64,000 nt of DNA from Myxococcota bacterium. GTDB lineage: Bacteria > Myxococcota > Kuafuiibacteriia > Kuafuiibacteriales > Kuafuiibacteriaceae. Position numbers and translations under genes: made by a program. Positions 332 to 54,177 of the stretch are shown piece by piece. The first letter of the stretch is position 1. Every line of letters begins with the position of its first letter. The notes beneath the pieces are model-generated. The model was not told the origin of the DNA, did not search any database, and saw nothing but the letters and a program-made list of their open reading frames with translations. Location: contig DAIQNR010000006.1 in the NCBI GenBank assembly GCA_036788295.1, forward strand, positions 51,523 through 115,522, given 5' to 3'.

Positions 332-597
332 CCGGCGAAGCTTTCGGGCGAGCCGGGCAAAATCAAGGCCGGTGACGCCAGACGCCGCGTTCGGGCTCGG
401 CGCGGGCCACGTTTTCGGCCGGAGGCGGAAGGGCCGACCCTCTCCGAGGTCTGGACACTTCTGCGACGGCGGCCCGGGCTGGTTCAGCCGTCATTCGAAC
501 GAGGGTCAGCCAGGGGTGTGACGCGGCGGAGGAGCGAGGCGAGGTCCAGGCCGGATCCTCGCCCCCGAGCGCCGAACCCCGTGGTACTCTGCCGCCC

Positions 598-1071: not shown

Positions 1072-1078
1072 GGCTCCA

Positions 1079-5877: not shown

Positions 5878-6164
5878 GAGGAAGCGATTCACGGCGCTGC
5901 CCGGGATGAAAACCCGGTTTGGCCCCCTGGAAACCCGGACGAGGATCGACCCATCGGACGAACGGCGAAACACAGCGGTCACACTGGACTTCCCGGCCTG
6001 AAACTTGGAAGGTCCCGGCCCGTGCCTAGGTGCGGATCGGCGACAGTCCGAGAGGCTGCTCCGGGGACCCCAGAGCCGAGCGGCTGGGCAAGAACGTGCG
6101 AGCGCGAGGGGCGGTCCCGGGCGGTTTGGGCTGCGAAGAGCGCAAGGAGATACGAGGTCATCGA

Positions 6165-9100
6165 ATGAACGAAGGACGCGGAGTGACGGTGAGGATGAAA
6201 GCGGCCCGGGTGCTGGCCCTGCTAGGCGCCTCGGCGACGGTGACCGCTGGGGTCGCGTCGTGCGTGCCGAGAAACCAGGACATCAACCGGGTCCAACCGG
6301 GGTTTGTCCGAAAGGCCATCTTCCAGACCGACCACGAGTGGTACTACCGCCGGACGGTCGCGCGGTCGGAGACGACCAACCAGTACATCATCGAAGGTCA
6401 CGGCGACATCGCGCTCGACCGCGTGAAATTCGATGTGCAGGAAAACCTGCTCCTGGCCTACCAGCCGTACGAGAACCTCCCCGGGACCACGCTCGCGACC
6501 CTGCCTGGCAACACGAGCTACAAGGGGCCCGTGCTCGCGGCATGGCCGATCACGTCGCACTTCGACATCATTCGAAACTACGATCCCCTCACCGGGAACC
6601 TGACGAACCTCATCGTCGAGAACACGGTCGATAGGCCGTGGCACGAGCGAGAGTTCATCAGGGTCGATTGGCACCACAACCTCGTCGAAGGGTCCATCTT
6701 CGCCGACTACTCCGGCTACTGGTTCCCGGTGAACTACGTCAGCGCCGACACCGGCTTCTGGCGAAACCTCGAGGAGAGCCCAACCGACCCGTTCGCGTCG
6801 CGGTTCAGCGACGACTACGTCGAGGTCAACGAGACCGTCGCCCTCGGCATGGACATCTTCATGTGCGCGTCGATGACCGGCTTCTCGTGGGCCGGCTTCT
6901 CGAACTGCGGATTCGGTGAGGCCCAGCTCCGCCACTCGTTCAAGCGCATCGACGAGCCCTCCGACTACATCCCCCGCGAGTTCCCGGATTCGATCGTGCG
7001 CAAGGGGGCGGACGGGCAGCCGATGTTCGACCCCGAGACCGGCGAGGTGGTCCGCGAACACATCTACAACCGGTTTGGAATCTTCCGGATCACGACCCCG
7101 ACCTACGACCCCGGGTACGGGCTGACCGAATCGGGGCGCCTCTTCCGCGCCATGCTGTTCGACATCTGGGAGCGCCACACCGACGCCCAGGGGACGCCCC
7201 TCCCGTTCGCGGCACGGACAGAGAAGCCGATCGTCTACTACCTGAACCACGACTACCCAAACCGCTACCGCCAGGTCGCTCGCGAAGTCGCCGACGAGTA
7301 CAACCGAGTCTTCACCTCCATGGTCGCCGACCTCAAGGGCGTGGAGTACGACCCGGAGACCAACAACTGCGGCGAGGGGTGGCCGGTGCAGTGCATGTTC
7401 GAGATCCGGGACAACGACTGCAGCGAGCCCAACGTCATCCGCTACGTGAACGACAACCCGGATCTGCTGTTTGCGGTGGAGCGAGCGGTGTGCCGCGACG
7501 GCGAGTCCTGCGGTGTGACGCTCGCGGACCTCTCGAGCGCGATCGGCGTCGGCAACCTCGACCAGGTCTGCACCTCTCTCGAGGCCGCGACCGTCGATCC
7601 CCAGACCGGAAAGTCGGACTTCGATTGGCAGCGCGTCGGTGACCCGCGCTACAACATGCTGGTCTACCTGAACAACCCGCAGCGCTCCCCATGGGGCGGC
7701 TACGGCCCCATGCACGCCGATTCGCGGACCGGACGCACCGTGTCGGCGACGTCCTTCATCCGCGGCCACTACTACGAGATCGGCGCCGCAAACGTGGTGG
7801 ATTACATCGAGCTCATCAACGACGAGAAGAGCATCGACGACATCATCTACGGGCAGGACATCCGGCGTCACGTCCGCGACACGCTGCAGAGGGGCGGATT
7901 CCTCGCCAACATGCAGGCTTCGCCCGGCTTCCTCGACCGGCTCGGGGAGCGGATCAGCGACCGCGGGGTGACGAGGGACGAGCTCCTGCCCCGGGTCGAG
8001 AACACCCGCCACCAGATGAGCCGCCTCGACCGAATCAAGGGGACGAAGTTCGAAGACACCCTCATCACCGAAGCCGACCTCCTGATGGCCTCCAACGGCC
8101 AGTGGGACCCGAGACTCGGACCGGCTCCCGACGACCTGAAGGAGCACGCGTCCCCGCTTGGGCGGCTGACGTTCGGGAACCCCGCCTCGCCGCAGCGCCG
8201 CGCCGCGCAGGCAGCGCTCGGGGAGGCCGGCTACTGCTTTCTCGCCGCCGACTTCGACCCCCACTGGGCCGGAATGGCGCTCGCGCTTCGCGACGCCGAC
8301 CGAGAGGAGCGCTTCCGCGTCGCCTCCGAGCGACTCATCAAGCACGTGATCCTGCACGAGCTCGGCCACAACGTCGGCCTCGCCCACAACTTCGAGGGCA
8401 GCTACGACGCCATGAACTACGAGCCCGAGTTCTGGGACCTCGAGGGACGCACCGCTCAGGAGAAGCTGGAGGGTCGCCAAGATGAGCTCAAGCAAACGAC
8501 CGTGATGGAGTACATGCCGAGCGGCAAGGGCGCTTTCGGCGACTACCTCGGAAAGTACGACGAGGCCGCGCTGCGGTTCGCCTACGGCAACCAGGTCGAA
8601 GTGTTCGACGGCCCCGACGTGGACCCGAACCTTCGCGGCGGGGAGGCGCTCCGGGCGTGGCGGTACCTGAACGACTACCGCTCCATCCCCGACCACCTCT
8701 GCGGCTCGAACGGATGCTCCACGCCGGCCCAGCGGGCCGCCGTGGTGACTCAGCGGAGGTGGGTCGATTTCGATCCCCAGAACCCGCCCCAAAACGAGGT
8801 GCCGTACCTCTTCTGCGACAACTACTTCAACCGCATGACGCCGTTCTGCGCGACGTTCGACTTCGGCGCCAACCTGCGGGAGGTGTTCTCGAACTACTAC
8901 GTGATGTGGTCGCAGTACTTCTTCTTCAACAACTTCGCTCGCGACCGCATCTCGCCGATCTCTTGGAACATCAACTCCGCGCTGACCCCTGCGTTCTTGG
9001 CGATGAACTTCGTCGATACCGTGGCGCAGTACTTCTACTTCCTGAACGTCACGCAGGGAGCGGAGTTCCGGAGGACGGCGCTGCACGAGGACATGGCGAC

Positions 9101-10121
9101 GACGCTGGCCAACGGGCTGAACATGGCGGCCGAGATCATCTCGACTCCGGACCCGATCCGGATGTGCCGCTGGCCCGGGGTGAACCCGCCGACCTTCATC
9201 ACCGCCGACGCGCTGCGCTCGTGCGACAAGTACGCCGAGCTGGGCTCGCCGTACGCGCTTCGCAGCGAGATGATCGAGATCCCGCTCGGTCACGGTCGCC
9301 CGGCGTCGATCGGCCTGACCGAGGACTACGAGACCTGGCAGCTCAGCTTCGTCGGGTCCTACTTCGACAAGACGAACGTGATCTTCCTGCTCGGGATGTC
9401 GAACCCGAGGCTGTTCCGATTCAACTACGATCTCGATCTGAGGAACTACTTCATCAGCCTCTACCGGATCTTCGAGCCCGAGCTGCGCGAGTTCTACCAG
9501 TCGCTGTCGAACCTCGACGTCTGGCTGGGCCTGTTCCGGCAGTCGGTGGCCCAGGACTTCGGGTCGTATTGGTGCCGCGACCCGGCGGTCCCGAACCGGC
9601 CCGACCTCGGGTACTTCGAGCCGAGGCGGATGATCGACCCGGTGCTCAACACGTCGATGCCGGGCCCGACGCAAAACTGCTTGGAGCCGGCACTCATCTA
9701 CCCCCGTTTGCTGGCCAACACCCCGTTCAACGCGATGTTGAGCGCCCACGCGCTCTTCTCCTCCGACTTCGACTCCCAGCTCGACCTGGGGAAGGACATG
9801 AAGATCTTCATGCGGGGTACCGATGACGACTTCACGTCCTGGGCGAACTTCCCGAACTGCGAGGAGGCCGGTGCCAACGAGGACTGCTTCTGCTCGCTCG
9901 TCGATGAGCTGACCGGGGTGGAGTTCCGCTCCATCCAGATCGCGTCCTCCCCGACGCTCGACGGCACCGTCCGGACGAGCCCCGGCTGCAGGCTCATCGA
10001 GCAGGCCCAGCTGGCGCAGAACAACTGGCGGACAGGACCATTCGAAAAAGACAACTGGCGACAGTGGATCGAGCGTCTCGAGTACGCGCGCGACCTCTAC
10101 CGCCTCTTCCAGGACCGCTGA
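6165..10121 (+). CDS. Giant zinc metalloprotease lipoprotein, DUF4953-type metzincin (HELGHNVGLAHNF)
   Basis: 1318 aa from ATG 6165 (AAGGAGA RBS). Alternative ATG at 6195 gives MKAARVLALLGASATVTAGVASC, a lipoprotein signal. HExxHxxGxxHNF zinc-binding motif at VILHELGHNVGLAHNFEGSYD. Track ORF start 6030 is upstream of the RBS. Confidence 0.8.
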   Translation: MNEGRGVTVRMKAARVLALLGASATVTAGVASCVPRNQDINRVQPGFVRKAIFQTDHEWYYRRTVARSETTNQYIIEGHGDIALDRVKFDVQENLLLAYQPYENLPGTTLATLPGNTSYKGPVLAAWPITSHFDIIRNYDPLTGNLTNLIVENTVDRPWHEREFIRVDWHHNLVEGSIFADYSGYWFPVNYVSADTGFWRNLEESPTDPFASRFSDDYVEVNETVALGMDIFMCASMTGFSWAGFSNCGFGEAQLRHSFKRIDEPSDYIPREFPDSIVRKGADGQPMFDPETGEVVREHIYNRFGIFRITTPTYDPGYGLTESGRLFRAMLFDIWERHTDAQGTPLPFAARTEKPIVYYLNHDYPNRYRQVAREVADEYNRVFTSMVADLKGVEYDPETNNCGEGWPVQCMFEIRDNDCSEPNVIRYVNDNPDLLFAVERAVCRDGESCGVTLADLSSAIGVGNLDQVCTSLEAATVDPQTGKSDFDWQRVGDPRYNMLVYLNNPQRSPWGGYGPMHADSRTGRTVSATSFIRGHYYEIGAANVVDYIELINDEKSIDDIIYGQDIRRHVRDTLQRGGFLANMQASPGFLDRLGERISDRGVTRDELLPRVENTRHQMSRLDRIKGTKFEDTLITEADLLMASNGQWDPRLGPAPDDLKEHASPLGRLTFGNPASPQRRAAQAALGEAGYCFLAADFDPHWAGMALALRDADREERFRVASERLIKHVILHELGHNVGLAHNFEGSYDAMNYEPEFWDLEGRTAQEKLEGRQDELKQTTVMEYMPSGKGAFGDYLGKYDEAALRFAYGNQVEVFDGPDVDPNLRGGEALRAWRYLNDYRSIPDHLCGSNGCSTPAQRAAVVTQRRWVDFDPQNPPQNEVPYLFCDNYFNRMTPFCATFDFGANLREVFSNYYVMWSQYFFFNNFARDRISPISWNINSALTPAFLAMNFVDTVAQYFYFLNVTQGAEFRRTALHEDMATTLANGLNMAAEIISTPDPIRMCRWPGVNPPTFITADALRSCDKYAELGSPYALRSEMIEIPLGHGRPASIGLTEDYETWQLSFVGSYFDKTNVIFLLGMSNPRLFRFNYDLDLRNYFISLYRIFEPELREFYQSLSNLDVWLGLFRQSVAQDFGSYWCRDPAVPNRPDLGYFEPRRMIDPVLNTSMPGPTQNCLEPALIYPRLLANTPFNAMLSAHALFSSDFDSQLDLGKDMKIFMRGTDDDFTSWANFPNCEEAGANEDCFCSLVDELTGVEFRSIQIASSPTLDGTVRTSPGCRLIEQAQLAQNNWRTGPFEKDNWRQWIERLEYARDLYRLFQDR

Positions 10122-10144
10122 GAATGGGGAGGAGAGGACGAGAG

Positions 10145-13100
10145 ATGGATATCATGAAGAACATGAAGCTGGCCGCGGTCCTGGCCACCGCCGCTGCGGC
10201 CGTGGGCTGCATCGGGGAGCCGCGGACCATCGACCGAACGCAGCCCAACGCGCTCGACAAGTCGATGTTCGAGGGCATCTGGTACTACCGCGCCGCGGTG
10301 GTGGAGTCCGACCCGGAAGCGGGCGTCATCGAGGGCATCACCTCGAACATGGACAAGCTGCGGTGGCGCATCGAGCGCGACCGGCTGGTGGGGTACCGAA
10401 GCTACGAGTTCGTCCCCTACGCCGAGGGATTGAGCGACGAGGGCGGGGACTTCTTCGGCTCGCCCTCGGTCGCGTACCGGATCACGAGCCACTTCGACAT
10501 CCAGCGTGACTACAACACGACGACCGGGGTCGAGACGAACGTCATCGTCGAGAACACGACCGACCGGCCCTGGTACCAGCGCCAGTACATGAGGGTGGAC
10601 TGGTCGCAGAACCTAGTCGGGCGGCCGACGCGGATCGGGTGGGCGAACTACCCGGACGCCTTCTTCTCTGCGTCGGCGATCACCGGCTATTTCGAGCAAG
10701 GGCACGTCGATACCGACGTCAACCGGCCGTTCATCACCCAGGACTACTTCGACGTCACCAACAACTTCAACGTCGCGCCGAACCCGTTCTACTGCAACAT
10801 GATGTTGCTCTTCAACTCCGTGCCCCGCTGCGGCGCGGCGAACGTGAAGGTCCGGCTCTCCTTCCGCAAGGTGGACACCGACGCGAAGTACGACGCTCTC
10901 TACTACCCCGACAACCTCGAGCTCAGGGACGACGAGGGCAACGCCATCGTCCTCAACAACGACGGACGGACCTGCGGACCGAACTGGAACCCATCGCAGT
11001 GCACGGTCCAGACCGTGGGGATGGACTCCCGGTTCGGCAACTTCCGGATCATGCGGGTCGCGTTCGACAAGGAGCGCAACTTCACCCGAACCGGGCGCAT
11101 CTTCCTCGCCGGCCGGTTCAACATCTGGGAGGACGCGTTCGACGAGAACGGCTCCCTCATCCCGTACGAAGCGCGGGTGCCGCGTCCCATCATCTACTAC
11201 AACAACGTGAAGCATCCGGAGGATCTGTTGGACGCGGCGCAGGAGATGGCGTCGTCTTGGACCGAGCCGTTCGACGAGACGGTGGCCTGGCTCAAGGGGT
11301 ACCGCACGGCCGATGGCCGGCCCGACGTGGAGGCGCTGAGGCAGCGGGACCTCGCCGACAACGGGGGCGCGATGTTCCAGGTCCGCCGAAACGCGTGCAA
11401 CCCGGAGGCGATCGTCGCCTATGCCAACGAAAACGGCCTGGGCTCGGTGGTGCAGCGCGTCGCCGGCTCCCCGGAGCTGGTCACGGTCGGGAACGTCGAG
11501 CAGGTCTGCGCGGCGGTTCAATTCGAAGAGATCCGGCAGGGCAAGACGGTCGATCCCAAGGTGGCGGCACGGGGGCAACAGGCGCTGGCGTTCACCTGGC
11601 AGCGCAAGGGCGACCTTCGGTACAACATCAACAACTACATCAACCAGCTGCAGAACGGCCCCTGGGGCGTGGCCCAGTTCGGACAGGATCCCGAGACCGG
11701 GGAGTTCGTCGCCAACATCGCGAACTACTTCGGCGACGCCGGTGACCGGATCTCGCAGCGGGGCGTGGACCAGTTGCAGTGGCTGAACGGGGATCTCTCG
11801 CAGGAGGAGCTGTTCCGCGGCGACTTCACCCGCAACGAGGTCGTGTCGCGCCGCTCGCTCGAGAACTCGAACATCCGGCTCGGGACCCTGCAGCGGTGGA
11901 TGACTCGCGAAGGGGAGATCCTCGACTCCCTCGGAGGAAACATCGCCCGGGAGTCGACCAGCGGCTCCGACGATGACCGCTTCGCTCGGATGTGGCGCGG
12001 GACCTCGATCGAGCGGGACTTCCTGGTGACCGACGACATCCTGCGCGGGTTTGCCGGTCCCACGCTGTACCAGCCGTTCGACAGCGGCGGCGGGGCTCGT
12101 GGCTCCGTTTCGTCTGGGGTGAGCGGCGTCTCGCCGGGCATGATGAGCGAGGAGGCGCTCGCCGCCGCCTCGCCGGTGAACTGGGGGATGACGCCAGAGA
12201 CCAACCCCTACAACCAGGCCGCCTTCGAGCTCGGCAGCCGTGGATGGGACATGGCCGACTTCTTCGACCCGAACATGGCTGGCTTGGCCCGGTTCGTTCA
12301 GGGCTGGGAGCGGGATCGCATTTGGCAGCACATGCGGCGCGGGCTCTACATCGCCGTCCAGGCCCACGAGGTGGGCCACACCGTGGGTCTTCGCCACAAC
12401 TTCCAGGGCTCGGTGGACGGGCTCAACTTCCGCCCAGAGTTCTGGGAGTCGACCGTGGAGATGGGTGAGGATGGCCAGGAGCGACAGATCGGCTTCTGGA
12501 ACAACCCACCGTCCAAGGACAACCCAAACCGCGGACCCGAGTACAAGTACTCCTCCATCATGGACTACGGCTTCGATCTGTCCCAGCAGGGCTGGCACGG
12601 GCTCGGGTCCTACGACAAGGCGGCGATTCGCTTCCAGTACGGGCAGTTGCTCGAGTTCTGGGACCCATCCAAGATCTCGATTCCCAACCCCCGCAAGTAC
12701 GGGAGCTTCGCGCGCCGCTGTGGCCAGGACAACGACTTCTACGGCTTCCGCGGGCTGATGTTCTGGAACCTGCCCGACCAGATCCCGAGCATCCTGTCGA
12801 GCACCCCGGTGGATCAGACCTCTTGCCTTGGGAACTACGACACGAACCAGTCGTGCGACTCGGAGATGGACGCACTGTTCCGGGAGTTGGTGGTGCGGAT
12901 GGAAGCCAACGCGGTTTCGGTCAACGACCCGTCGCGGTGCACCTTGTTCATCACCGACGTGAATGAGCTCCTCGATTCCGTTCAGGAGCAGGCGCCGGAC
13001 GCGTCGAGGGTCTACGGCGCGCGAATGCTCGGGTCGTTCTCGGATTACCTCGAGCAGCAGGTGGAGGTCCTGACGAACTTCCCGGACTACACCAACCGGG

Positions 13101-14689
13101 CGATCGGGGTGTCGACCCCGGAGCGAGCCGGATCGAAGGGCGGGATCTTCCGGGACAAGCCTCTGCTGGACGCGAACGGGCAGGTGGTGCGGGATGAGCT
13201 CGGCAACGCGCGGTGCGAAGTGCAGGTTCAGCGCGACGCGAACGGCAACCCCGAGCTCGACGGCAACGGCAACCCGATCGAGGTAAGGGACGCGTCCGGC
13301 AACCCGGTCTGCGCCCGCATCACGACCTGGGAGGGTGTGCTCCACCCGGTGCCGTACGAGTACTGCTCGGACCTGTACGCGAACTTCTCGAACCCGTTCT
13401 GCCAGCGGTGGGACACCGGTTGGACGTTCACGGAGGCGGTTCAGAGCCACGCCGACAAGTTCGACCGCGACTACGTGTTCAACAACTTCCGGCGGGATTC
13501 GATGTCTCCCTGGGGCAACGCTGGCGCCTACATGCAGCGGCTCATGGCCCGGACGATGTTCCACATGACGAACGTCTACCGGTACTATCTGTTCACTCGG
13601 GGCTCGGCCTTCCAGGCTCCGAGGTACCTCGACTGGGCGGAGGCGTCGTACCGCGGCCTGAACTTCCTGGAGCGGGTCATTCAGACTCCGGAGCCAGGGA
13701 CGCACTGCCTGGGGGCGGACAACGTATACCGGCTTCAGCTCGACCCGAACCAGACCTGCGAGTCGCCGTACACCGTGGGCCTAGGGCCGGCGGCCGGTCG
13801 CTTCCTCGACAGCTCCTGGACACAGGAGTACCACTACAAGGCCAACCGAATCGGTGACTTCTACACGAAGGTGGCGGCGGTCGCGCAGCTCACGTCGTCG
13901 TCCGGGCGCTTCGTCCGGGACTTCGCCGACGTGTTCGACCGACGGGCGTTCTCGCTCGGGTACCTCCGGGTGTTCCAGGATCCGCTCCTGCAGCGGTTCT
14001 CGGCCCTGATCTCCGGGGATCACACGGGGTACCGGAGCCGGGTGGTGGAGGACGAGACCGGCAGCGGTCGCTACGTTCGGTACACGCCGTTCTTCGACGA
14101 GGCCTTCGACGATGGCCGCTCGGTGCGCCAGTGGCTCGAGCGGGACGCGGATCGGGACGGGGTCGCCGACTTCCCGGAGATCGAGCCGGCGTGGTCGTGG
14201 AGCCTTCAGTACTTCTCCATGGCCTACGCTCTGGCGAACTGGAGCTCGATCAACGACAGCGCCCCCGAGTACTTCCGGATGGCGATGATCGCCATCGAAG
14301 GGACCCCATGGGACCCGATCTACCCCGAAGGAATGACGATTCAGACGTTCACCGACCCGGAGACGCAGATCACCTACCGGGCTCCGGTGATCAGGCCGAT
14401 CTCGGAGGGCAGCATTCTCGATCGGGAGTTCCGGGACTACTACGGGGACGCGACGATGCTGACCGAGGGTCGGTTCCGGTTCTGGGGGCCTGGGGCGGAG
14501 ATTCTGGCCGAGGCGGACAACTTCGTTCGGCTCGAGTACGAGCCGGCGCGGCAGGCATGCGAGAGCACGGGCGACGCCGCTTCGTGCGCTCGGTTCCGGC
14601 GAGCCCGAGCCGGGCTGAACGAGCGGACCGGGTTCATCGACCGGGTTCGAAAGTTCGTCCAGCGGGCGCAGATGACCGTCGAGCTGTGA
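10145..14689 (+). CDS. Giant zinc metalloprotease lipoprotein, paralog of the preceding gene (HEVGHTVGLRHNF)
   Basis: 1514 aa from ATG 10145 (GGGAGGAGAGG RBS). MDIMKNMKLAAVLATAAAAVGC signal/lipobox. Motif AVQAHEVGHTVGLRHNFQGS matches the DUF4953 Met-zincin signature. Colinear similarity to the upstream paralog (WYYR..., HFDIQRDYN..., NVIVENTTDRPW...). Confidence 0.8.
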   Translation: MDIMKNMKLAAVLATAAAAVGCIGEPRTIDRTQPNALDKSMFEGIWYYRAAVVESDPEAGVIEGITSNMDKLRWRIERDRLVGYRSYEFVPYAEGLSDEGGDFFGSPSVAYRITSHFDIQRDYNTTTGVETNVIVENTTDRPWYQRQYMRVDWSQNLVGRPTRIGWANYPDAFFSASAITGYFEQGHVDTDVNRPFITQDYFDVTNNFNVAPNPFYCNMMLLFNSVPRCGAANVKVRLSFRKVDTDAKYDALYYPDNLELRDDEGNAIVLNNDGRTCGPNWNPSQCTVQTVGMDSRFGNFRIMRVAFDKERNFTRTGRIFLAGRFNIWEDAFDENGSLIPYEARVPRPIIYYNNVKHPEDLLDAAQEMASSWTEPFDETVAWLKGYRTADGRPDVEALRQRDLADNGGAMFQVRRNACNPEAIVAYANENGLGSVVQRVAGSPELVTVGNVEQVCAAVQFEEIRQGKTVDPKVAARGQQALAFTWQRKGDLRYNINNYINQLQNGPWGVAQFGQDPETGEFVANIANYFGDAGDRISQRGVDQLQWLNGDLSQEELFRGDFTRNEVVSRRSLENSNIRLGTLQRWMTREGEILDSLGGNIARESTSGSDDDRFARMWRGTSIERDFLVTDDILRGFAGPTLYQPFDSGGGARGSVSSGVSGVSPGMMSEEALAAASPVNWGMTPETNPYNQAAFELGSRGWDMADFFDPNMAGLARFVQGWERDRIWQHMRRGLYIAVQAHEVGHTVGLRHNFQGSVDGLNFRPEFWESTVEMGEDGQERQIGFWNNPPSKDNPNRGPEYKYSSIMDYGFDLSQQGWHGLGSYDKAAIRFQYGQLLEFWDPSKISIPNPRKYGSFARRCGQDNDFYGFRGLMFWNLPDQIPSILSSTPVDQTSCLGNYDTNQSCDSEMDALFRELVVRMEANAVSVNDPSRCTLFITDVNELLDSVQEQAPDASRVYGARMLGSFSDYLEQQVEVLTNFPDYTNRAIGVSTPERAGSKGGIFRDKPLLDANGQVVRDELGNARCEVQVQRDANGNPELDGNGNPIEVRDASGNPVCARITTWEGVLHPVPYEYCSDLYANFSNPFCQRWDTGWTFTEAVQSHADKFDRDYVFNNFRRDSMSPWGNAGAYMQRLMARTMFHMTNVYRYYLFTRGSAFQAPRYLDWAEASYRGLNFLERVIQTPEPGTHCLGADNVYRLQLDPNQTCESPYTVGLGPAAGRFLDSSWTQEYHYKANRIGDFYTKVAAVAQLTSSSGRFVRDFADVFDRRAFSLGYLRVFQDPLLQRFSALISGDHTGYRSRVVEDETGSGRYVRYTPFFDEAFDDGRSVRQWLERDADRDGVADFPEIEPAWSWSLQYFSMAYALANWSSINDSAPEYFRMAMIAIEGTPWDPIYPEGMTIQTFTDPETQITYRAPVIRPISEGSILDREFRDYYGDATMLTEGRFRFWGPGAEILAEADNFVRLEYEPARQACESTGDAASCARFRRARAGLNERTGFIDRVRKFVQRAQMTVEL

Positions 14690-47222: not shown

Positions 47223-48845
47223 CTACGAGGTCGTCTCGATCGGCCGCGGTGCGCACGTTCGGGCGCCGTGGGCCTCGAGGAGCGCCGCCGCTTCGTGGTG
47301 CCCATGCCGCTCGGCGTCGTCTCGCGGCGTGCCGCCCCAGCGATCGACGGGGTCCACCTCGACCCCGCGCTCGAGCAAGAACTCGATGACTTCGAGGTGC
47401 CCCTCCGCAGCGGCGAGATGCATGGCGGTTCGGCGGTCGTAGTCGGCGAGATGCAGGCAGTTGGCGCGGGCGCTGAGCCGCTTCAGCGCGGATACATCCC
47501 CCTTGCTCGCGGCCCACAGCACGGGACCCACCCGGTCCGCGCGCTCCTCTCCAAATGCGATCCGCGGGTCGTCCTTCTCCGTGAGTCCGGTGAGGTTGTC
47601 GTAGTTGTGGAAGTTGTACCGGCTGACGAGGCCCCGAGCCATCGCGAGGCCTCGAACCGAGTTCCCGAAGCTGTCGAGGCGGGGGGACCAAGTGACCATG
47701 CCCATCACGTTCGGCACGACGACCATGATCGCCCCGGCTACGCCCGACTTCGCCGGGAGCCCGACGGTGAACGCGAACTCCCCCGAGAAATCGTACATCC
47801 CGCAGCTGTACATCAGGGACATGCAGTTGCGGACGGTCTGCGGCGAAAACACCGTCTCCCCGGTGAGCGGGTTGACCCCTCCGTTGGCCAAGGTGGCGGC
47901 GAGCACCGCCATCTTCTTGGTCGTGACGTCGATCGAGCAGCACATGAAGTAGAACTCGAGGGTCTGGTGCAGATCGGTGCCCGGAGGGAACGCCTTGTTC
48001 TCCTGCATGAAATAGCCGAGCGCGAAGTTGCGGTCAGCGGTCTGGCGCTCGGACAGGTACACTGAATTGTTGAATCCGACCTTCGCGCCACACGCTCGGC
48101 GCCACTGCGCGAGCACGTAGTCGAACCGGTCGGACATGTCTTCGCCCGGGCGAAGCAGCGAGCAGCACATGATGGCGCCGGCGTTGATCATCGGGTTGTG
48201 CGGTTTGCCGTCGGCGTTCAACGCGAGCTCGTTGAAGCCGCGACCGCTCGGCTCGCGCCCGACGTGCTCATGCACCTTGGCCTCTCCGTGCTCCTCGAGC
48301 GCCAGGCAGTAGTTGATCGGCTTGCAGGTGGACTGGACGCAGAAGTCCAGGTCGTGGTCGCCGAGGTCGATGCGCTGGCCGTCGATCGTGCACACCGAGG
48401 CCGCCCAGTGCTCCGGATCGACCCGAGACAGCTGGGGAATGTAGTTGGCGACTGCGCCCCCGTCTTCGTCCCGGCACTGCTCGAACAGGCCGGTGATGCT
48501 CGCGCGAAAGCGCCCGAACTCGGGGATGACCATTTCTCCTGAGATTGCACGCTCGACCGTGCTGATGCCAGGCTGAATGACCTGGCAGAACGCGTTGTAG
48601 TCCATGCCCGCTTCGGTGTGGTCGCGGAGGCGAGCGAGGACTGGGCGCAGCCGGGGGTCGGTCGCGACGTCGAGCCCCGACGCCTCGAGCGCTTCGGTGA
48701 GCTCGGCGCGGCTCACGAGTTTCTGCGAGCCGGCAAGCGAGGCAAACAACCGGCGCTCCCGGAGGACCGCCGGCTGGGCCAGCTCCTCCGGGGCCAGGCT
48801 GACCGGCGACGCATCCGCGGTCGCCGTCGAGTGGTCTCGATGCAT
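47223..48845 (-). CDS. glsA: Kidney-type (GLS-like) glutaminase with N-terminal EF-hand-like domain and C-terminal ankyrin repeats
   Basis: 540 aa from ATG 48845 (AAGGGGAG RBS). VANYIPQLSRVDPEHWAASVCTIDGQRIDLGD...CVQSTCKPINYCLALEEHG...HEHVGREPSG..FNEL.LN.DGKPHNPMINAGAI and C-terminal DVSALKRLSARANCLHLADYDRRTAMHLAAAEGHLEVIEFLLERGVEVDPVDRWGGTPRDDAERHGHHEA are colinear with human GLS/KGA including its ankyrin tail. Confidence 0.85.
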   Translation of the reverse strand: MHRDHSTATADASPVSLAPEELAQPAVLRERRLFASLAGSQKLVSRAELTEALEASGLDVATDPRLRPVLARLRDHTEAGMDYNAFCQVIQPGISTVERAISGEMVIPEFGRFRASITGLFEQCRDEDGGAVANYIPQLSRVDPEHWAASVCTIDGQRIDLGDHDLDFCVQSTCKPINYCLALEEHGEAKVHEHVGREPSGRGFNELALNADGKPHNPMINAGAIMCCSLLRPGEDMSDRFDYVLAQWRRACGAKVGFNNSVYLSERQTADRNFALGYFMQENKAFPPGTDLHQTLEFYFMCCSIDVTTKKMAVLAATLANGGVNPLTGETVFSPQTVRNCMSLMYSCGMYDFSGEFAFTVGLPAKSGVAGAIMVVVPNVMGMVTWSPRLDSFGNSVRGLAMARGLVSRYNFHNYDNLTGLTEKDDPRIAFGEERADRVGPVLWAASKGDVSALKRLSARANCLHLADYDRRTAMHLAAAEGHLEVIEFLLERGVEVDPVDRWGGTPRDDAERHGHHEAAALLEAHGARTCAPRPIETTS

Positions 48846-49025
48846 GAGTTCTCCCCTTGGAGGCTCGGATGAAAGGGGGACGGCCTCCAACCCGACAGAA
48901 TCGCCAAGCGGGCCCGCTGCGCAAGCCGCATTCCGCGACAATTGACCACGGAGCGCTGATCTTCGCACTCACGCCGCCCGACCGCCGCCGGCGGGCGCGG
49001 GTTTCTGCTCGGTCACCACTACGTG

Positions 49026-49218
49026 GGTCAGCGGGAGGCGGTCTCTTCGAGGCGGCTCCAGAAACGAGCCGTGAGTCGCGACCACGCGTGGGCCTCGGCC
49101 ACCTCCCGCCCCGAGGCCGCCTGGCTATCGGGCGTGTCGCCACGGAGGCCCTCGAGGAGCCGAGCGGCGAAGCACGCGTCGGTCTCGGCCCGCCGGTAGT
49201 GAACGCCGTCCTCGAGCG
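49026..49218. repeat. 193-bp direct repeat, copy 1 (duplicate of the 3' end of the GT4 gene); second copy at 50891-51083
   Basis: Copies are identical except for 2 substitutions, both synonymous in the GT4 reading frame. Copy 1 encodes an orphan fragment (track ORF 49028..49243) identical to the last 60 aa of the GT4 protein (...LEDGVHYRRAETDACFAARLLEGLRGDTPDSQAASGREVAEAHAWSRLTARFWSRLEETASR). Confidence 0.9.
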
Positions 49219-49243
49219 CGCCAGCGTCTTCTGAAATCGGCAC
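49028..49243 (-). pseudogene. Orphan C-terminal fragment of the GT4 glycosyltransferase (duplicated 3' end)
   Basis: 71-aa ORF whose last 60 aa equal the GT4 C-terminus. No glycosyltransferase N-terminal domain is attached. Confidence 0.7.
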
Positions 49244-49400
49244 CCCGACCTCGCTGAAGGCCTAACTCGAGTGATTCCCCGAGGGCTCTCAGGCCGCCGA
49301 GGCGAGCCGCGCTCTGGAAGAGCGCTCGACTTGAAGAAGCTTTGAAGTTCGTCCGGGCTCGCGTCATTCACCGGCGACTTTCAAGAAAGGTCACTCCATC

Positions 49401-50783
49401 ATGAACCAAACACGACATTCCCTCATGATCTAACTCGCCGGATCCCTGACCCTCGCGGCCTGCGGCGGCGACGCGGTGGAGCTCGGCTCGAGCTACCTTG
49501 CCTCCGCCGACATCCTCGCGAGCGCGGGCGGAGGCTTCGTGGTCAGCGAGTCCGAATCCCCCGAGTACGCCGGCGTGGGCATCGACGTCCCGGCCGGGGC
49601 CCTGGCTCAGGACGTGACCCTCACCGTCGCGCCGACCGCCGACCTCGCGACCGTCGAGGACGTCGAATGGGTGGGACCGGCGATGGACTTCGGTCCGGAC
49701 GGCCTCACCTTCTCGATGCCGGCGACGATCACCCTGTTGGTGAACCGATCGCTCGGCGACGATTCCCCGGTGGTCCGCGCCGTGAGCGCCGACGGCAGCT
49801 CGGAGTGGATTGAGACCGATGACATCCAGGTCAACCAGAATGGCACGTGGTCCTTTCCCGCGTCCCACTTCACCATCTTTCAGCCCGGGCGAAGGCCGCG
49901 TCGCCAGACGGCCGGGGAGAGCTTCTCGGATCTCGACTGCCAACCGGGCTTCATCTGCGCCGCGATCGGCCGCTGCATCGACGGCTCGGGCGACGACCTC
50001 TACGAGGTGGCCCAGGCGGCGGGGAACTTCAGCACCCTGTTGACGACGGTGGACAGCCTCCGGCTCGCGGGGCTCATCTCCGTACCCGGACCCTTCACCC
50101 TGTTCGCCCCGACCGACGCTGCCTTCGCGTCGCTGCCCGTCAACCTGAGCGTCGTGGACTCGGCGATCGTCGAGAACATCATCTTCAACCACATCGCGTT
50201 CGACGAATTCGACGCCGCTGCCCTCACCGCAGCCGCGGAGGTGACGACCATCGCAAAGGTCACCCACGCTTTCGGCGGCGGGACGGTGCGCAGCGCCCGG
50301 ATCGCGACCGCCGATGTCGCCGCCTCGAACGGGATCATCCACGTCCTCGACGACGTCATCGTCCCGCCAACCATTCTCGAGACGGTGGCCGCGCGCCGGT
50401 TCACCCAGCTCTCCGCCGCCCTCGCCGCCGCGTCGCCGGCCACCCGCCAGGCGCTCGACCCGGATACCCTCGGGGGCGCGGCGCCGGTCACCCTGTTCGC
50501 GCCGCTCGACTCCGCCTTCGAGGCCGCGAATCTCGCTGGAGAGAACCTGGACGCGGTCCTCGCGACCCACGTGGTGGCCGGGCAGATCACTTCCGGCGAT
50601 CTCACTCCGGGTCGGGTCTTCACGACCCTGTCGGGGAGCCGTCTCACGGTGGGGACCGAAGGCCGGCCTGCGTCGCTGACCGACGAGCGCGGGAACACCT
50701 TCAGTGTGATCTTCTCGGATACGCGGACCCTGACCGGCGTCCTTCACGTCATCGACGGGGTGCTCCTCCCCGCGCGACCCTGA
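49401..50783 (+). pseudogene. Fasciclin (2x FAS1 domain) lipoprotein gene with an in-frame TAA at codon 11 inside the signal peptide
   Basis: ATG 49401 gives MNQTRHSLMI-TAA(49431)-LAGSLTLAACGGDAVELGSS... in the same frame as the 435-aa FAS1 ORF. The only start downstream of the stop is GTG 49476, which lacks a signal peptide. FAS1 signatures FTLFAPTDAAFASLP and NGIIHVLDDVIVP, VTLFAPLDSAF and GVLHVIDGVLLP. Confidence 0.6.
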
Positions 50784-50890
50784 GCGCGGCGTCGGGCTGG
50801 TCGTCGCCCCTGCGCAGGCCATCCCGAGGACCGGGTTCGTCCCTCGCTTTCTCGGTAGGCTCGTCCTCGGCGAGATTCGACGCGCCGGGC

Positions 50891-51083
50891 GGTCAGCGGG
50901 AGGCGGTCTCTTCGAGCCGGCTCCAGAAACGAGCCGTGAGTCGCGACCACGCGTGGGCCTCGGCCACCTCTCGCCCCGAGGCCGCCTGGCTATCGGGCGT
51001 GTCGCCACGGAGGCCCTCGAGGAGCCGAGCGGCGAAGCACGCGTCGGTCTCGGCCCGCCGGTAGTGAACGCCGTCCTCGAGCG
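50891..51083. repeat. 193-bp direct repeat, copy 2 (the native 3' end of the GT4 gene)
   Basis: See copy 1. Offset is 1865 bp. The two copies flank the FAS1 gene. Confidence 0.9.
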
Positions 51084-52068
51084 GAAACCCACGCACGCCC
51101 ACGGCCGTGGACACGAGCGGGATCCCGGCAGCGAGGGCCTCGACGACCTTCAAGGACGAGCCCGCGCCGTGGCTCAAGGGGTTTGCGAAGACGCGCGCCC
51201 GGCGAAGGTATGGCTCCACCGACGGTATGGTTCCCGTGACTTCGACGCGAGGTCCCCGGAGCGCCGCGACCCGAGCAGGTGGGTTTGCCCCACAGAGGAC
51301 GAGCGTGGCCTGGGGCGCTCGTGCCCACACTTGGGGCATGATCCGTTCAACGAGACGATGGGCCGCCGCCTGGTTCGGAGAATGGTCCATTCGGCCCACG
51401 AACAGGACCTCCGCGCCCCGTCGCGCCGACGGCAGCACGAGCGGGACGCGCTCGATCGCGACGCCATTTGGGATCACGTCTGGGCGCTCGGGTGAAAACG
51501 CCGCGATGTGGTCCGCGTCGGCCTCCGTCACGCAGACGATCCGGCTCGCCGCCCGCCACGCCTTCTGCTCGAAGGCGCGCATGGTCGCCACCGCCCATCG
51601 TCCCAGGGCGCCCACCGGTCCGCGAGCCTCGATCGACCCCGCCAGGAAGTCGCTCTCGACGTTGTGCTCATCGAGGAGCCAGGGGAGATCGGCTCCGAGA
51701 GCGGCCCGCGCGCCGTAGACATGCTCGACCCACACGAGGTCGAAACGGCGAGCACGGTGGGCCTCGGCGAAGGCGCGGAGGTTCGAGCGGGGGGTCCCCC
51801 GCGCCGCTCGGGTCGGCAGCCCCGGTTCGGGCAGGAAAAGATGGGGGTAGGGTGCCACCCGGTGCCAAGCGTACGTGGCAAGCAGCGGGTCGATTTCTGG
51901 GTTTCGCCGCTCCTTCCCGGAGGCCATCGTGAAAAGATGTAGCTCGGCCCGCTCGGCCACCCGCCGCGACAGTTCGAACATCCTCATCCTACCCCCGCTC
52001 GTCGGTGGGACCGGGAGGTAGGGGCAGAACAGCGCGATCCGGAGCACGGAAGCCTGGTCCCACGCCAT
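50893..52068 (-). CDS. GT4-family glycosyltransferase (GT-B fold)
   Basis: 391 aa from ATG 52068: MAWDQASVLRIALFCPYLPVPPTSGGRMRMFELSRRV... and C-terminal EX7E-type region. The 635-aa track ORF has a low-complexity upstream extension, judged spurious. Confidence 0.75.
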   Translation of the reverse strand: MAWDQASVLRIALFCPYLPVPPTSGGRMRMFELSRRVAERAELHLFTMASGKERRNPEIDPLLATYAWHRVAPYPHLFLPEPGLPTRAARGTPRSNLRAFAEAHRARRFDLVWVEHVYGARAALGADLPWLLDEHNVESDFLAGSIEARGPVGALGRWAVATMRAFEQKAWRAASRIVCVTEADADHIAAFSPERPDVIPNGVAIERVPLVLPSARRGAEVLFVGRMDHSPNQAAAHRLVERIMPQVWARAPQATLVLCGANPPARVAALRGPRVEVTGTIPSVEPYLRRARVFANPLSHGAGSSLKVVEALAAGIPLVSTAVGVRGFPLEDGVHYRRAETDACFAARLLEGLRGDTPDSQAASGREVAEAHAWSRLTARFWSRLEETASR

Positions 52069-52152
52069 GCGCGTCGGGTCACGTCGCTTCTCGGCCGCCG
52101 TCGAGACGCGAATCGCCCCGTCGGGTCGGCGCCGTGCTAGACGGTCGGGCCC

Positions 52153-53064
52153 GTGATCCCCCTCGTCGGGCATTTCGTTTGGATCGGGCCCCGGCTCGGC
52201 TTCGAGCACGTCCTCGCCGTCCGGTCGGCGGCTGCCCGGGGGGGGCTGGACCGGCTGGTGCTGCACCACGCCGACGCGCTCGACGCCGGGCCCGAGCTCG
52301 AGGCCATCCTCGCCGTCGAGACGCTCGAGCTTCGACGATTCGACCCCGAGACCCTCTTGCGAAAGCCCCTGATTGGGCTCTACCTCCGACTCGAGTCGGC
52401 TGCGGCTCGCGCCGACCTGGTCCGCGTCGCGATCTTGGCCGAGGAGGGCGGGGTGTACCTCGACGCGGACACGCTGACCGTGGCGAGTCTCGCCCCTCTG
52501 TGCGCCGGCGGCGGCGCGTTTGCGGGAGAGGAGCACATCATCTTTCCGGCCTCCGTCCGGGACAGCCGAAGCCCCGTCCGCTGGTCCCGAGCAATCGCGC
52601 AGGTTGGGCTGCGGACCGCGTGCCGCCTCGCGCCGGGGGGCTGGCGGGCGTTCCGGAGGGTCGAAGGCTGGTATCCTCGCGCGATGAACAACGCGGTCCT
52701 TGCTGGGGAGCCGGGACATCCCGTCCTCGACGCGCTGCTCGAGGCGATGGCCGGCCGGGCGGAGAAGTCGCGGCTGTCTCCCTACGCGCTCGGGCCGCAC
52801 CTCCTACAGTCTGGCGCCGCGCGCCTCGAGTCGATGGGGCTCGTCGTTCATCCTCCGCCTGTGTTCTATCCACTGGGCCCCCGGGTCGCGGAGCACTGGT
52901 TTCGGCCGGGCACGGCGCGCCACGTCGACCGGATGCTGGCCCCCGAGACCAGGGTGATTCATTGGTATGCGTCCAACCGGCTCACGGGGCCCATGAGCGC
53001 CGCGTGGGTTCGGGAGCGGGCCGAAGACCTCGCGTTCTGTCGGCTCGCGCGGCCTTTCGTCTGA
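52153..53064 (+). CDS. GT32-like glycosyltransferase (Gly_transf_sug, DXD motif)
   Basis: GTG start. VGHFVWIGPRLGF N-terminal motif and GGVYLDADT DXD motif, characteristic of Och1/capsular-polysaccharide-type GT32 enzymes. Confidence 0.6.
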   Translation: MIPLVGHFVWIGPRLGFEHVLAVRSAAARGGLDRLVLHHADALDAGPELEAILAVETLELRRFDPETLLRKPLIGLYLRLESAAARADLVRVAILAEEGGVYLDADTLTVASLAPLCAGGGAFAGEEHIIFPASVRDSRSPVRWSRAIAQVGLRTACRLAPGGWRAFRRVEGWYPRAMNNAVLAGEPGHPVLDALLEAMAGRAEKSRLSPYALGPHLLQSGAARLESMGLVVHPPPVFYPLGPRVAEHWFRPGTARHVDRMLAPETRVIHWYASNRLTGPMSAAWVRERAEDLAFCRLARPFV

Positions 53065-53118
53065 GAGCGCAGGTCGGCACCCCCCGGAAAGATCGTGCTA
53101 CGAGGAGCGCCAAAAAGC

Positions 53119-54177
53119 ATGTCCATCACCCTCGACGTCCTATCCCGGCCCGCGTTCAAGAACCGGCCGCTCAACCCCTACAACGCCCGCATCAACGAGC
53201 AGCTCGGAGGCTTTGGCGTGCGGGTCTTCGAGTATCGACCCCACCGGCCCCTCATCGAGCACTACGACGTGCTCCACGTGCATTGGCCCGAGACGACGTT
53301 CAACCACGACGTGCTCTCGGCGGCGGCGACGACAGAGTCGCTTCTCCTCGCGATGCGGGTGGCCCGGGCGAAGGGGACGAAGACCGTCTGGACGGCGCAC
53401 AATCTCTATGCTCAGGAGCACCGCTACCCGAAGTGGGAGGCCCACTTCTGGCGGCGATACATTCCCCAGGTCGATGGGGTCATCGCACTGACCGAGGACG
53501 GTCTCGAGCGCACACGAGAGACCTTCCCCGGCCTCGACACGCGGCCCGGGTGGGTGCTGCCTCACCCTCACTACCGCGGCGCCTACCCAGACACGATCTC
53601 CGACGAGGAGGCGCGGGCTCGCCTCTCGCTGCCTCCGAACGCCGAGGTCCTCGTCTTCTTCGGGCAGATCCTCGACTACAAGAACGTTCCCGCGCTCGTT
53701 CGCGCGTTTCGAACGATGTCCGGGGGCCCAAAGCCCCGCCACCTCGTGGTGGCAGGACGCCCACGGAGCCGCGAGCTCGAGCTCGCCGTCCGTCACGCCG
53801 CTCGGGGTGCGGATCGTGTGCATCTGCACCTGCGCTACGTCCCGGATTCGGACGTGCAGATGTTCCTGCGCGCCGCGGACCTCGTGGTGCTCCCGTACAA
53901 GGAGATCCTCAACTCGGGGAGCGCCGTGCTGGGGCTGTCGTTCGACAGGAGGGTCTGCATGCCCTGCACCGGGGCGGCCCCTTCGCTTCGCTCCGTGGTG
54001 GGAGAGCGCTGGATGCATCTGTACGACGAGCTGGGCCCCGAGTCCTTGGCTGCGGCGCTCGAGGGCGTAGGCGATCTGCCGCGGCGCACCGATGGGGCGC
54101 ATCTCGGCGGCATCTCGCCGATGGCGATAGCCGAGAGCACCGCCGCGATCTACCGGGAGCTGCTCGGCTCGAGATGA
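53119..54177 (+). CDS. GT1/GT4-like glycosyltransferase (GT-B C-terminal domain)
   Basis: 353 aa from ATG 53119 (AGGAG upstream). LVVAGRPRS...LRYVPDSDVQMFLRAADLVVLPYKEILNSGSAVLGLSF sugar-donor binding region. Confidence 0.6.
   Translation: MSITLDVLSRPAFKNRPLNPYNARINEQLGGFGVRVFEYRPHRPLIEHYDVLHVHWPETTFNHDVLSAAATTESLLLAMRVARAKGTKTVWTAHNLYAQEHRYPKWEAHFWRRYIPQVDGVIALTEDGLERTRETFPGLDTRPGWVLPHPHYRGAYPDTISDEEARARLSLPPNAEVLVFFGQILDYKNVPALVRAFRTMSGGPKPRHLVVAGRPRSRELELAVRHAARGADRVHLHLRYVPDSDVQMFLRAADLVVLPYKEILNSGSAVLGLSFDRRVCMPCTGAAPSLRSVVGERWMHLYDELGPESLAAALEGVGDLPRRTDGAHLGGISPMAIAESTAAIYRELLGSR

Follow-up and report, generated by a model that had tools for sequence, protein, structure and literature searches.

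A direct repeat of the 3' end of a glycosyltransferase (GT4) gene, enclosing a fasciclin-domain (FAS1) gene, is best read from the sequence as a real but ordinary recombination scar and not as a mobile cassette. Specifically, we propose, with a probability of about 0.55, that the locus is the scar of an insertion-duplication rearrangement of the chromosome, produced by the cell's own recombination and repair machinery rather than by a mobile element. The features of the locus are listed in Table 1; the window referred to throughout is the whole 64,000-nt stretch of DNA that was analysed.

Table 1. Coordinates and properties of the features at the GT4-FAS1 locus (positions within the window)
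Feature	Coordinates	Strand	Description or basis
Spacer	48846..49025	-	separates the stop codon of the orphan from ATG 48845, where glutaminase starts
Repeat copy A	49026..49218	-	orphan, 5'-truncated: last 62 codons of GT4, stop codon and 2 nt; 191/193 versus copy B
FecR-type anti-sigma gene, decayed 3' remnant	49219..49334	+	about the last 37 codons; tblastn, translation and nucleotide alignments
Promoter-like block upstream of FAS1	49341..49379	+	TTTGAAGttcg..N..CGTCATTCACcGGCGACT; common to three orthologous loci
FAS1, double fasciclin domain lipoprotein gene	49401..50783	+	PF02469, two fasciclin stretches, E = 7.8e-37
FAS1 3' flank within insert	50784..50890	+	107 nt; ends abruptly at copy B
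Repeat copy B	50891..51083	-	functional 3' end of the intact GT4 gene
GT4 glycosyltransferase, complete	50893..52068	-	391 aa from ATG 52068; PF13692, PF13439

The two copies are 193 nt long, lie in direct orientation with a spacing of 1,865 nt, and agree at 191 of 193 positions (repeat search, MAFFT and a script). In a blastn comparison of the window with itself the pair gave E = 2e-95 and was the sole strong repeat, the other self-match being weak (140 nt, 74%) and located elsewhere. The two mismatches fall at 49052/50917 (G and C; CGC versus CGG) and at 49106/50971 (C and T; CGG versus CGA), and both are third codon positions of arginine codons on the minus strand. The original prediction of a GT4 3' end present twice, 1865 bp apart, with two synonymous differences was thus accurate in its geometry; its figure of 61 codons was not, as the repeat holds 62 full codons plus 2 nt of GT4. 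That both differences are synonymous has a probability of about 0.07 by chance, and is weak evidence of selection on the orphan copy.

The edges of the repeat are abrupt. The outer edge lies 2 nt past the GT4 stop codon (TCA on the plus strand, at 49028-30 and 50893-95), and only one of the seven bases just past it is alike; past the inner edge there is no similarity (MAFFT and script). Alignment likewise detected no similarity when the spacer was compared with the DNA that lies downstream of copy B. Across the spacer, the public call for the 540-aa glutaminase (P0242) starts at 48845. A scan for terminators returned, as its only "terminators", a weak hairpin inside both repeat copies.

Copy A sits inside a 71-aa ORF (49028-49243) that was annotated by public gene callers (P0122), matches no Pfam family on its own, and is most likely a dead gene fragment. 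MAFFT detected no GT4 homology upstream of 49218, which rules out the orphan as the tail of a longer, decayed GT4 paralogue. The GT4 gene that carries copy B is complete: alignments with homologues of 381-392 aa cover residues 1-389 of the query, and the 608-aa call in public data has an over-extended start. The cluster has undergone another rearrangement in this lineage: the closest relatives have GT4b and GT4 as an overlapping tandem pair, but here the orientation of GT4 to GT4b is inverted.

The structure itself was recovered in independent assemblies. We used Logan assemblies (k=31) of runs SRR3311151, SRR3311153 and SRR3311156 (contigs L022, L023 and L031-L034), in which all four junctions are present in contigs of all three runs, and which match the window over about 42 kb except at 2 sites, including 50917. 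Contigs end at 49055 or 49082, 49189, 50920 or 50947, and 51054. These ends lie exactly 30 nt (k-1) inside the segments that the copies share, or the same distance beyond a copy-specific SNP, as a two-copy repeat predicts. Because the assemblies of three runs carry all four junctions and break at these points, an error in the MAG assembly is unlikely. The collapse or expansion artefact that had been suggested is, given identical junctions in all three runs, very unlikely, and the same holds for a mis-resolved graph in which the chromosome carries one repeat (glutaminase - R - GT4) and the insert with the second repeat resides on another molecule or in another strain, such as a 1,865-nt circle or a tandem array. 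A k=31 graph alone looks alike for two copies in a linear arrangement and for a single copy accompanied by a circle. However, at least three runs contain both of the junctions between insert and repeat. The copy-specific SNP at 49052/50917 is found joined to the flank on the glutaminase side in L032 and L033, and to the flank on the FAS1 side in L022. The shared segments measure just 54 and 111 nt and would be resolved by ordinary reads, read pairs or k=141; the MAG assembler ran a 125-kb contig through the region. In addition, the supposed 1.9-kb circle would have no replication function, and no insert-free read-through contig was found in any run.

Between the copies lie 1,672 nt that are single-copy in these samples, with one unbroken unitig across the insert in each run. 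By homology, this insert is a fragment of a conserved locus composed of an ECF sigma factor, a FecR-type anti-sigma factor and FAS1. The fasciclin gene was correctly predicted to lie on the opposite strand from GT4 (a plus-strand PF02469 gene against the minus-strand GT4). Its true frame starts at ATG 49401 and is broken by TAA at 49431-33, which is codon 11 and falls within the signal peptide (MNQTRHSLMI-TAA-LAGSLTLAAC|GG). In the orthologues, which are 462-467 aa long and can be aligned from Met1 through the lipobox, T, S or L stands in place of the TAA, and the signal peptide and L-A-A-C lipobox match those of five orthologues. The longest unbroken ORF, from GTG 49476, is without the signal peptide. 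The premature TAA is present in both Logan contigs examined and was seen in all runs, and the substitutions at otherwise invariant sites are mostly conservative. FAS1 has probably been inactivated recently. The nearest FAS1 relative in a collection of 5.8 billion proteins is 63% identical. An origin of FAS1 as foreign DNA was rejected on account of its GC3 (0.90, versus 0.81-0.88 for its neighbours) and of the chromosomal location of its orthologues in related Myxococcota.

Upstream of FAS1, the remnant translates as ...LKA*LE*FPEGSQAAEASRALEERST* and corresponds by tblastn to ...MRAYLDRFPSGANAEAARRALKE... in an orthologue. It matches, codon for codon, the gene directly upstream of FAS1 in three orthologous loci (L029/L030, L052 and L027), with 54-58% identity and no indels after column 4 when aligned with L029, L027 and L052. 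Two in-frame stops interrupt it, TAA at 49263-65 where the orthologues have TAC (Tyr), and TGA at 49272-74 where they have CGx (Arg); its own stop, at 49332-34, lines up with theirs. The alignments make the anti-sigma homology secure rightwards from about 49250 and plausible for 49219-49250, so that the left end of the insert lies in the remnant or within about 30 nt of it. On the preferred reading, neither the remnant nor the orphan GT4 copy has a function.

The promoter-like block that follows contains CGTCATTCAC and GGCGACT, both invariant in four of four aligned sequences, and its region is 77-82% identical to L029 and L027 by blastn. An ECF sigma factor gene is located two genes upstream in the three orthologous loci, and the block may be an ECF-sigma-dependent promoter; a sigma-70 consensus scan found nothing there. 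The 3' flank of FAS1 includes a hairpin (CCGAGGAC...GTCCTCGG, at 50824-31 and 50863-70) and is not homologous to the sequences that follow FAS1 in the orthologous loci.

No domain of a transposase, integrase or recombinase was found by Pfam searches of the insert ORFs and of about 45 ORFs spread over the 64 kb, which bears out the earlier statement that no transposase is present. We found no terminal inverted repeats pairing 49219... with ...50890, and neither an att-like structure nor an attC-type imperfect-palindrome site at the insert ends. Searches with the insert returned only a 59-nt fasciclin-domain match among plasmids, and no match among phages and viral contigs. The same element was not found at the same target elsewhere or on phage, plasmid or viral records, a comparison of limited power given that no GT4 relative exceeded 53% identity in GTDB species genomes, JGI metagenome contigs or the 5.8-billion-protein collection. 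The collections searched also yielded no empty site (GT4 without the insert) and no genome with FAS1 downstream of GT4, and neither glutaminase nor FAS1 adjoined GT4 in any relative examined. Of the predicted "cassette insertion or recombination", then, the recombination footprint stands, with GT4 intact and an orphan 3' fragment; the cassette does not, the insert being an arbitrary locus fragment that lacks terminal repeats, att-like structure and relatives on plasmids, phages or viral contigs.

A related but improbable account is that the locus is the remnant of a site-specific integrative element that entered at the GT4 3' end and supplied a replacement 3' end, as do e14 and phage 21 at icd, and that later lost its integrase and most of its cargo. 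The topology is identical to that of icd - e14 - icdC (PMC13626634), and the repeat's outer edge falls at the end of the coding sequence, as would be expected of a selected gene end borne by an element. Against this, neither the 1.7-kb insert nor the 64-kb window contains an integrase, excisionase, phage or ICE gene, and the insert has no relatives among phages, plasmids and viral contigs. It consists of ordinary chromosomal DNA whose chromosomal surroundings are conserved in three other organisms, and its edge falls within, or next to, what remains of a truncated anti-sigma gene. Moreover, the copies are 99% identical at the nucleotide level and are not conserved mainly as protein.

The preferred reading, an insertion-duplication by cellular recombination, would proceed as follows. 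A 1,672-nt fragment would have been cut from the sigma/anti-sigma/FAS1 locus, with its right end 107 nt past FAS1, and joined to GT4 188 nt before the GT4 stop codon. Read along the GT4 strand, the product would begin with the full GT4 gene, which ends in copy B; the insert would come next, followed by copy A, a GT4 3' fragment truncated at its 5' end, and then by the original spacer and glutaminase. One homologous exchange within GT4 together with one illegitimate joint, between 49218 and 49219, would give exactly the observed order. In Campbell-type insertion-duplication, a circle that bears a 3'-terminal fragment of a gene integrates by a single crossover. We infer that the pathway was of this type, or was homology-facilitated illegitimate recombination, acting on DNA with FAS1 downstream of GT4. 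Both require what is found here, a full gene, an insert and a 5'-truncated copy in direct orientation, with near-identical copies. The joint passes from the GT4 interior into the anti-sigma remnant, or to no more than about 30 nt beside it, with at most 2 nt of microhomology (CG), as judged against the orthologues and not against the pre-event sequence; it appears to reflect illegitimate joining rather than an att site. FAS1 would have kept its own promoter, lost the adjacent sigma and anti-sigma genes, and later gained a nonsense codon. GT4 remains intact, so the event was tolerated.

Four observations count against this insertion-duplication. The repeat edge 2 nt past the GT4 stop is roughly a 1-2% coincidence under random breakpoints; an edge at the GT4 stop is the expectation for an element that carries a selected replacement 3' end. 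The reading also needs DNA in which FAS1 was already downstream of GT4, whether in a sister strain or in an earlier arrangement. The two nonsense codons of the anti-sigma remnant are more than the divergence of the repeats would lead one to expect, as set out below. Lastly, the anti-sigma homology of 49219-49250 is not secure, which leaves as much as about 30 nt at the joint unassigned.

Tandem segmental duplications and templated-insertion scars arise by template switching, and a possible though rather doubtful alternative is that such switching occurred in place. Here the ancestral order would have been glutaminase ... sigma, anti-sigma, FAS1 and convergent GT4, so that the orphan copy was inserted and FAS1 never was. 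In one variant, sigma and most of anti-sigma were lost at a break, which was repaired with 193 nt copied from the nearby GT4 end; in the other, 49219-51083 (1,865 nt) was first duplicated in tandem, and the first unit was then deleted. Such a duplication makes the novel joint of 51083 to 49219 in one step, and the template is only 1.7 kb off. The anti-sigma remnant stands where it natively does with respect to FAS1, and the conserved promoter is kept; the insert is single-copy, and the cluster has been rearranged otherwise too. On the other hand, two novel joints or two successive events are required, the second joint must again fall by chance exactly 2 nt after the stop codon, and a templated patch of 193 nt is long for bacterial end joining. 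Furthermore, in no relative do sigma, anti-sigma and FAS1 adjoin glutaminase or GT4.

The near-identity of the copies suggests either that the event is young or that gene conversion with the selected GT4 end has homogenised them. The latter is hinted at by site 50917, which is polymorphic: run SRR3311153 has the copy-A base there, in runs that are otherwise near-clonal, and this fits gene conversion or a very recent change. The 99% identity of the repeat is no clock for the event, since one of its two differences is polymorphic and the adjacent dead anti-sigma DNA is far more decayed. At the 1% divergence of the repeats, two nonsense codons in a 37-codon remnant would have a probability of about 0.0007. 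The decay of the remnant thus exceeds that divergence and calls for an extra assumption, namely gene conversion, or an anti-sigma gene that was dead before the event.

A repeat of this kind could also serve as a functional recombination switch, in which RecA pops the FAS1 unit out as a circle and back, giving surface-lipoprotein heterogeneity in a surface-polysaccharide locus. We consider this highly improbable. With 193 nt of near-identity there is more than enough sequence for RecA to act on, the 50917 polymorphism suggests that the copies do exchange sequence, and GT4 would stay intact after the deletion. However, FAS1 has its premature stop in all runs, no run contains an empty-site contig, an origin-less circle would be lost and the switch would be one-way, and nothing sets it apart from incidental recombination between repeats. 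We give equally little credence to the proposal that the 1,865-nt unit, made up of FAS1 and one repeat, acts as a minimal integrative module that is not autonomous and that moves in and out of the 3' end of a polysaccharide-cluster glycosyltransferase, leaving that gene unharmed, via RecA or a recombinase encoded elsewhere. If true, the module would correspond to an icd/e14 system that lacks a recombinase, and it would toggle a surface lipoprotein.

Unless that excisable-module reading is true, the locus holds no new biology, and its importance lies mostly in annotation and method. The 71-aa ORF and the 435-aa FAS1 call in public collections represent an orphan fragment and a probably inactivated gene, respectively. 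The lesson for method is that near-identity of short direct repeats cannot be taken as a measure of age. The locus is also a clean natural example of a gene-end duplication that lets an insertion be tolerated.

The locus shares features with several known systems. Like an IS or transposon, it has direct repeats of target DNA around an inserted segment; as originally pointed out, however, 193 nt is far longer than target-site duplications of 2-14 bp, and transposase and terminal inverted repeats are absent. The insert differs from an integron gene cassette in including a promoter-like block of its own together with the remnant of a gene, and it has neither integrase nor attC-like site. Template-switching scars also copy nearby sequence and show a novel joint with little or no microhomology between unrelated coding sequences, but a simple tandem duplication would double FAS1 too, whereas here only the 193-nt block occurs twice, so that a second event is needed. 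In Escherichia coli K-12 the 3' end of intact icd is directly repeated beyond the inserted e14 DNA, with the orphan icdC beside the original downstream flank (PMC13626634), and recombination between the icd copies would delete the insert and leave a working gene (PMC13626634; Hill et al. 1989 cited there). The intact gene with a displaced orphan 3' end is found here as well, and an integrase beside an att site is not; e14, a prophage of 15 kb, encodes an integrase and undergoes site-specific excision, in contrast to 1.7 kb of chromosomal DNA without a recombinase, and the icd copies differ at several positions, including amino acids, whereas those described here are 99% identical. Campbell-type and homology-facilitated illegitimate recombination are known mainly from laboratory constructs and transformation experiments, and the donor here is hypothetical, but they predict this gene order, near-identical copies and one joint possibly without homology.

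A repeat search of the window returned one outstanding direct repeat, 193 nt long and 99% identical, between positions 49026-49218 (copy A) and 50891-51083 (copy B), at a spacing of 1865 nt. In a blastn comparison of the whole window against itself the pair was matched at E = 2e-95; one further self-match, weak, lay elsewhere. The repeat extends from 2 nt past the stop codon of the GT4 glycosyltransferase gene to 188 nt inside its coding sequence, and similarity stops abruptly outside both edges. Both mismatches between the copies (49052 G / 50917 C and 49106 C / 50971 T) are third positions of arginine codons on the minus strand (CGC/CGG and CGG/CGA); the copies therefore encode the same 62 residues, LEDGVHYRR...EETASR. 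The original prediction, which had recognized the repeat and the GT4 and fasciclin (FAS1) genes, was correct overall, although it counted 61 codons rather than 62. The public GT4 call (P0001, 608 aa, 50893-52719, minus strand) is about 217 codons too long at its 5' end, where it runs into the oppositely oriented DXD glycosyltransferase gene; a start at ATG 52068 (391 aa) is backed by homologues.

Logan contigs, independent k=31 assemblies each made from a single run, also encode three proteins of the window: the fasciclin protein, the glutaminase and the DXD glycosyltransferase. Each mapped contig end falls exactly 30 nt (k-1) into a segment common to both copies, or 30 nt beyond a SNP that tells the copies apart, as a two-copy repeat predicts, and all four junctions therefore exist in the reads of several runs. 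No contig running from the glutaminase directly into GT4 was present in the Logan assemblies of any run. The insert between the copies is spanned as a whole by one unitig per run and is thus single-copy. The assembly collapse or expansion that had originally been allowed for appears very improbable: the sole other resolution of the graph, one chromosomal copy plus a 1,865-nt circle, would still need two repeat copies and an origin-less circle. The locus is a real, population-wide structural scar of well-defined anatomy, comprising an orphan GT4 3' fragment, an anti-sigma remnant, an orphaned and seemingly recently inactivated FAS1, and an intact GT4.

Coordinates of features at the GT4-FAS1 locus, in the window unless a contig is named
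Feature	Position	Strand or run	Remark
GT4 glycosyltransferase, complete	50893-52068	minus	391 aa; full length against homologues
FAS1 lipoprotein gene	49401-50783	plus	premature TAA 49431-49433, hidden by public calls starting at GTG 49476
Conserved block	49341-49379; L029 ~7945-7985; L027 ~935-975; L052 ~5945-5985		
Second difference between window and Logan contigs	44987	SRR3311156	A in window, T in run; inside Wzy_C-type gene
Logan contig L022	49189-50947	SRR3311156	
Logan contig L023	49189-50920	SRR3311153	
Logan contig L031	leftwards from 49055	SRR3311153	
Logan contigs L032, L033	leftwards from 49082	SRR3311156, SRR3311151 respectively	
Logan contig L034	rightwards from 51054	SRR3311156	seen in one other run too
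GT4b-GT4 comparison	50893-54177; L024 6925-9173; L026 7039-9149; L035 4868-7125		

In three other organisms, genes for an ECF sigma factor (Sigma70_r2 / r4_2) and a FecR-type anti-sigma protein directly precede the FAS1 orthologue; on contig L027 the orthologue follows an incompletely assembled gene sharing the anti-sigma C-terminus. Translation of window positions 49221-49334, ...LKA*LE*FPEGSQAAEASRALEERST*, aligns with the anti-sigma C-termini ...MRAYLDRFPSGANAEAARRALKE..., with TAC changed to TAA and CGx to TGA. This homology is secure from about 49250 rightwards, which places the left break in the remnant or within about 30 nt of it; the right end of the insert lies 107 nt past FAS1. A block 3' of the remnant and upstream of FAS1, TTTGAAG...CGTCATTCAC.GGCGACT, is conserved in all four loci. 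Since FAS1 follows an ECF sigma/FecR pair in three of the four organisms bearing it, this block is a candidate ECF-type, and probably ECF-dependent, promoter of FAS1; in the window, the adjacent sigma factor gene has been lost. All this makes the 1,672-nt insert a fragment of a sigma/anti-sigma/FAS1 locus.

The publicly called FAS1 ORF (GTG 49476, 435 aa), which carries two fasciclin domains by Pfam, is not the real gene. From an in-frame upstream ATG at 49401, the translation reads MNQTRHSLMI, then TAA, then LAGSLTLAACGG. Five orthologues of 462-467 aa (59-64% identity) can be aligned with this frame from Met1 onwards, through an A-A-C-G lipobox, and have T, S or L at the position of the TAA; FAS1 is therefore a lipoprotein gene whose signal peptide is interrupted by a premature stop at codon 11. 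The TAA is present in both FAS1 Logan contigs, independent assemblies of two runs. Because changes in the remaining protein relative to the orthologues are mostly conservative, the inactivation looks recent.

The copies diverge by 1%, and at this level the probability that the 37-codon anti-sigma remnant would hold two nonsense codons is about 0.0007; a divergence of 0.1-0.3 is required before this becomes likely. Either the anti-sigma gene had thus already died when the event took place, or homogenisation is acting on the repeat copies, so that repeat identity alone cannot settle whether the event was recent or ancient. The three runs are close to clonal: across about 42 kb they depart from the window at 2 sites, of which one is 50917, where run SRR3311153 carries the copy-A base G. 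A random new mutation would rarely fall at this site, and gene conversion is visible only at such sites; homogenisation by gene conversion thus has direct support.

About 45 ORFs, which together cover the window, showed no integrase, transposase or recombinase in Pfam scans, bearing out the original statement that no transposase is present. The window contains housekeeping genes (pyruvate:ferredoxin oxidoreductase, arginine decarboxylase, a poly(A) polymerase-type nucleotidyltransferase and an MglA/MglB-like pair) and a Wzx/Wzy-type polysaccharide cluster at 44.4-58.7 kb. The MglB/MglA-like pair (376-1666, plus strand), a Roadblock/LC7 protein followed by a small Arf/Ras-like GTPase, is consistent with myxobacterial origin. 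Inside the polysaccharide cluster, the glutaminase (47223-48845, minus strand) combines EF-hand_14, Glutaminase and ankyrin-repeat domains in the order found in kidney-type glutaminase of animals, an unusual one for a bacterium. Two adjacent, very large paralogous ORFs (6030-10121 and 9908-14689, plus strand; 1363 and 1593 aa), with weak Met-zincin (DUF4953) matches, have in common a 140-nt segment, 74% identical (6548-6687 / 10480-10619). The insert ends have no inverted repeats, phage and viral-contig searches found no relatives of the insert, and a plasmid search with it returned only a 59-nt fasciclin-domain match. As the insert is also single-copy and the GC3 of FAS1 (0.90) is native-like, the earlier term 'cassette' is unjustified. 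There is no sign of a new mobile system at the locus, and the novel reading that is left, an excisable module without its own recombinase, is very improbable.

The source organism is a Polyangia-type myxobacterium represented only by a MAG with a 125-kb contig. The nearest homologues of GT4 (53% identical) and FAS1 (63%) show no synteny with the glutaminase or with each other's gene, and at that distance of GT4 no empty site or donor arrangement was found in public data. The closest relatives have GT4b immediately 5' of GT4 in the same orientation, with stop and start overlapping, and in them GT4 is the terminal gene of its cluster, the next gene being 1-20 nt away. In the window, by contrast, GT4 runs opposite to the DXD glycosyltransferase and GT4b, indicating that the cluster had at least one other rearrangement, apparently an inversion of GT4 in this lineage.

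On the GT4 strand, the order is full gene, insert, 5'-truncated copy and native downstream flank. Such an order is the textbook result of integrating, by a single homologous exchange, DNA with a 3'-terminal gene fragment. At the joint between 49218 and 49219, the GT4 interior is fused to the anti-sigma remnant, or to no more than about 30 nt of unassigned sequence next to it; judged against the orthologues, any microhomology would span 2 nt at most. This joint leads us to favour, with a probability of about 0.55, one homologous exchange within GT4 plus one illegitimate joint, which would have involved no dedicated recombinase. The main rival for the same joint, an event in place (tandem duplication of 49219-51083 and then deletion, or a deletion repaired with a templated copy of 193 nt), seems unlikely. 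Of all features, only the outer repeat edge is poorly explained by every random-breakpoint model. Its position, exactly where the coding sequence ends, would be accounted for by a degraded e14-type integrative element, but nothing else supports such an element, and we consider it improbable. Given that GT4 is cluster-terminal in the closest relatives, a recurrent synteny break directly after its stop codon is plausible, if unproven. The locus is of a known kind, an insertion-duplication with an icdC-like orphan gene end: its GT4 - insert - orphan fragment topology is that of icd - e14 - icdC in E. coli, where a duplicated gene end likewise surrounds an insertion (PMC13626634).
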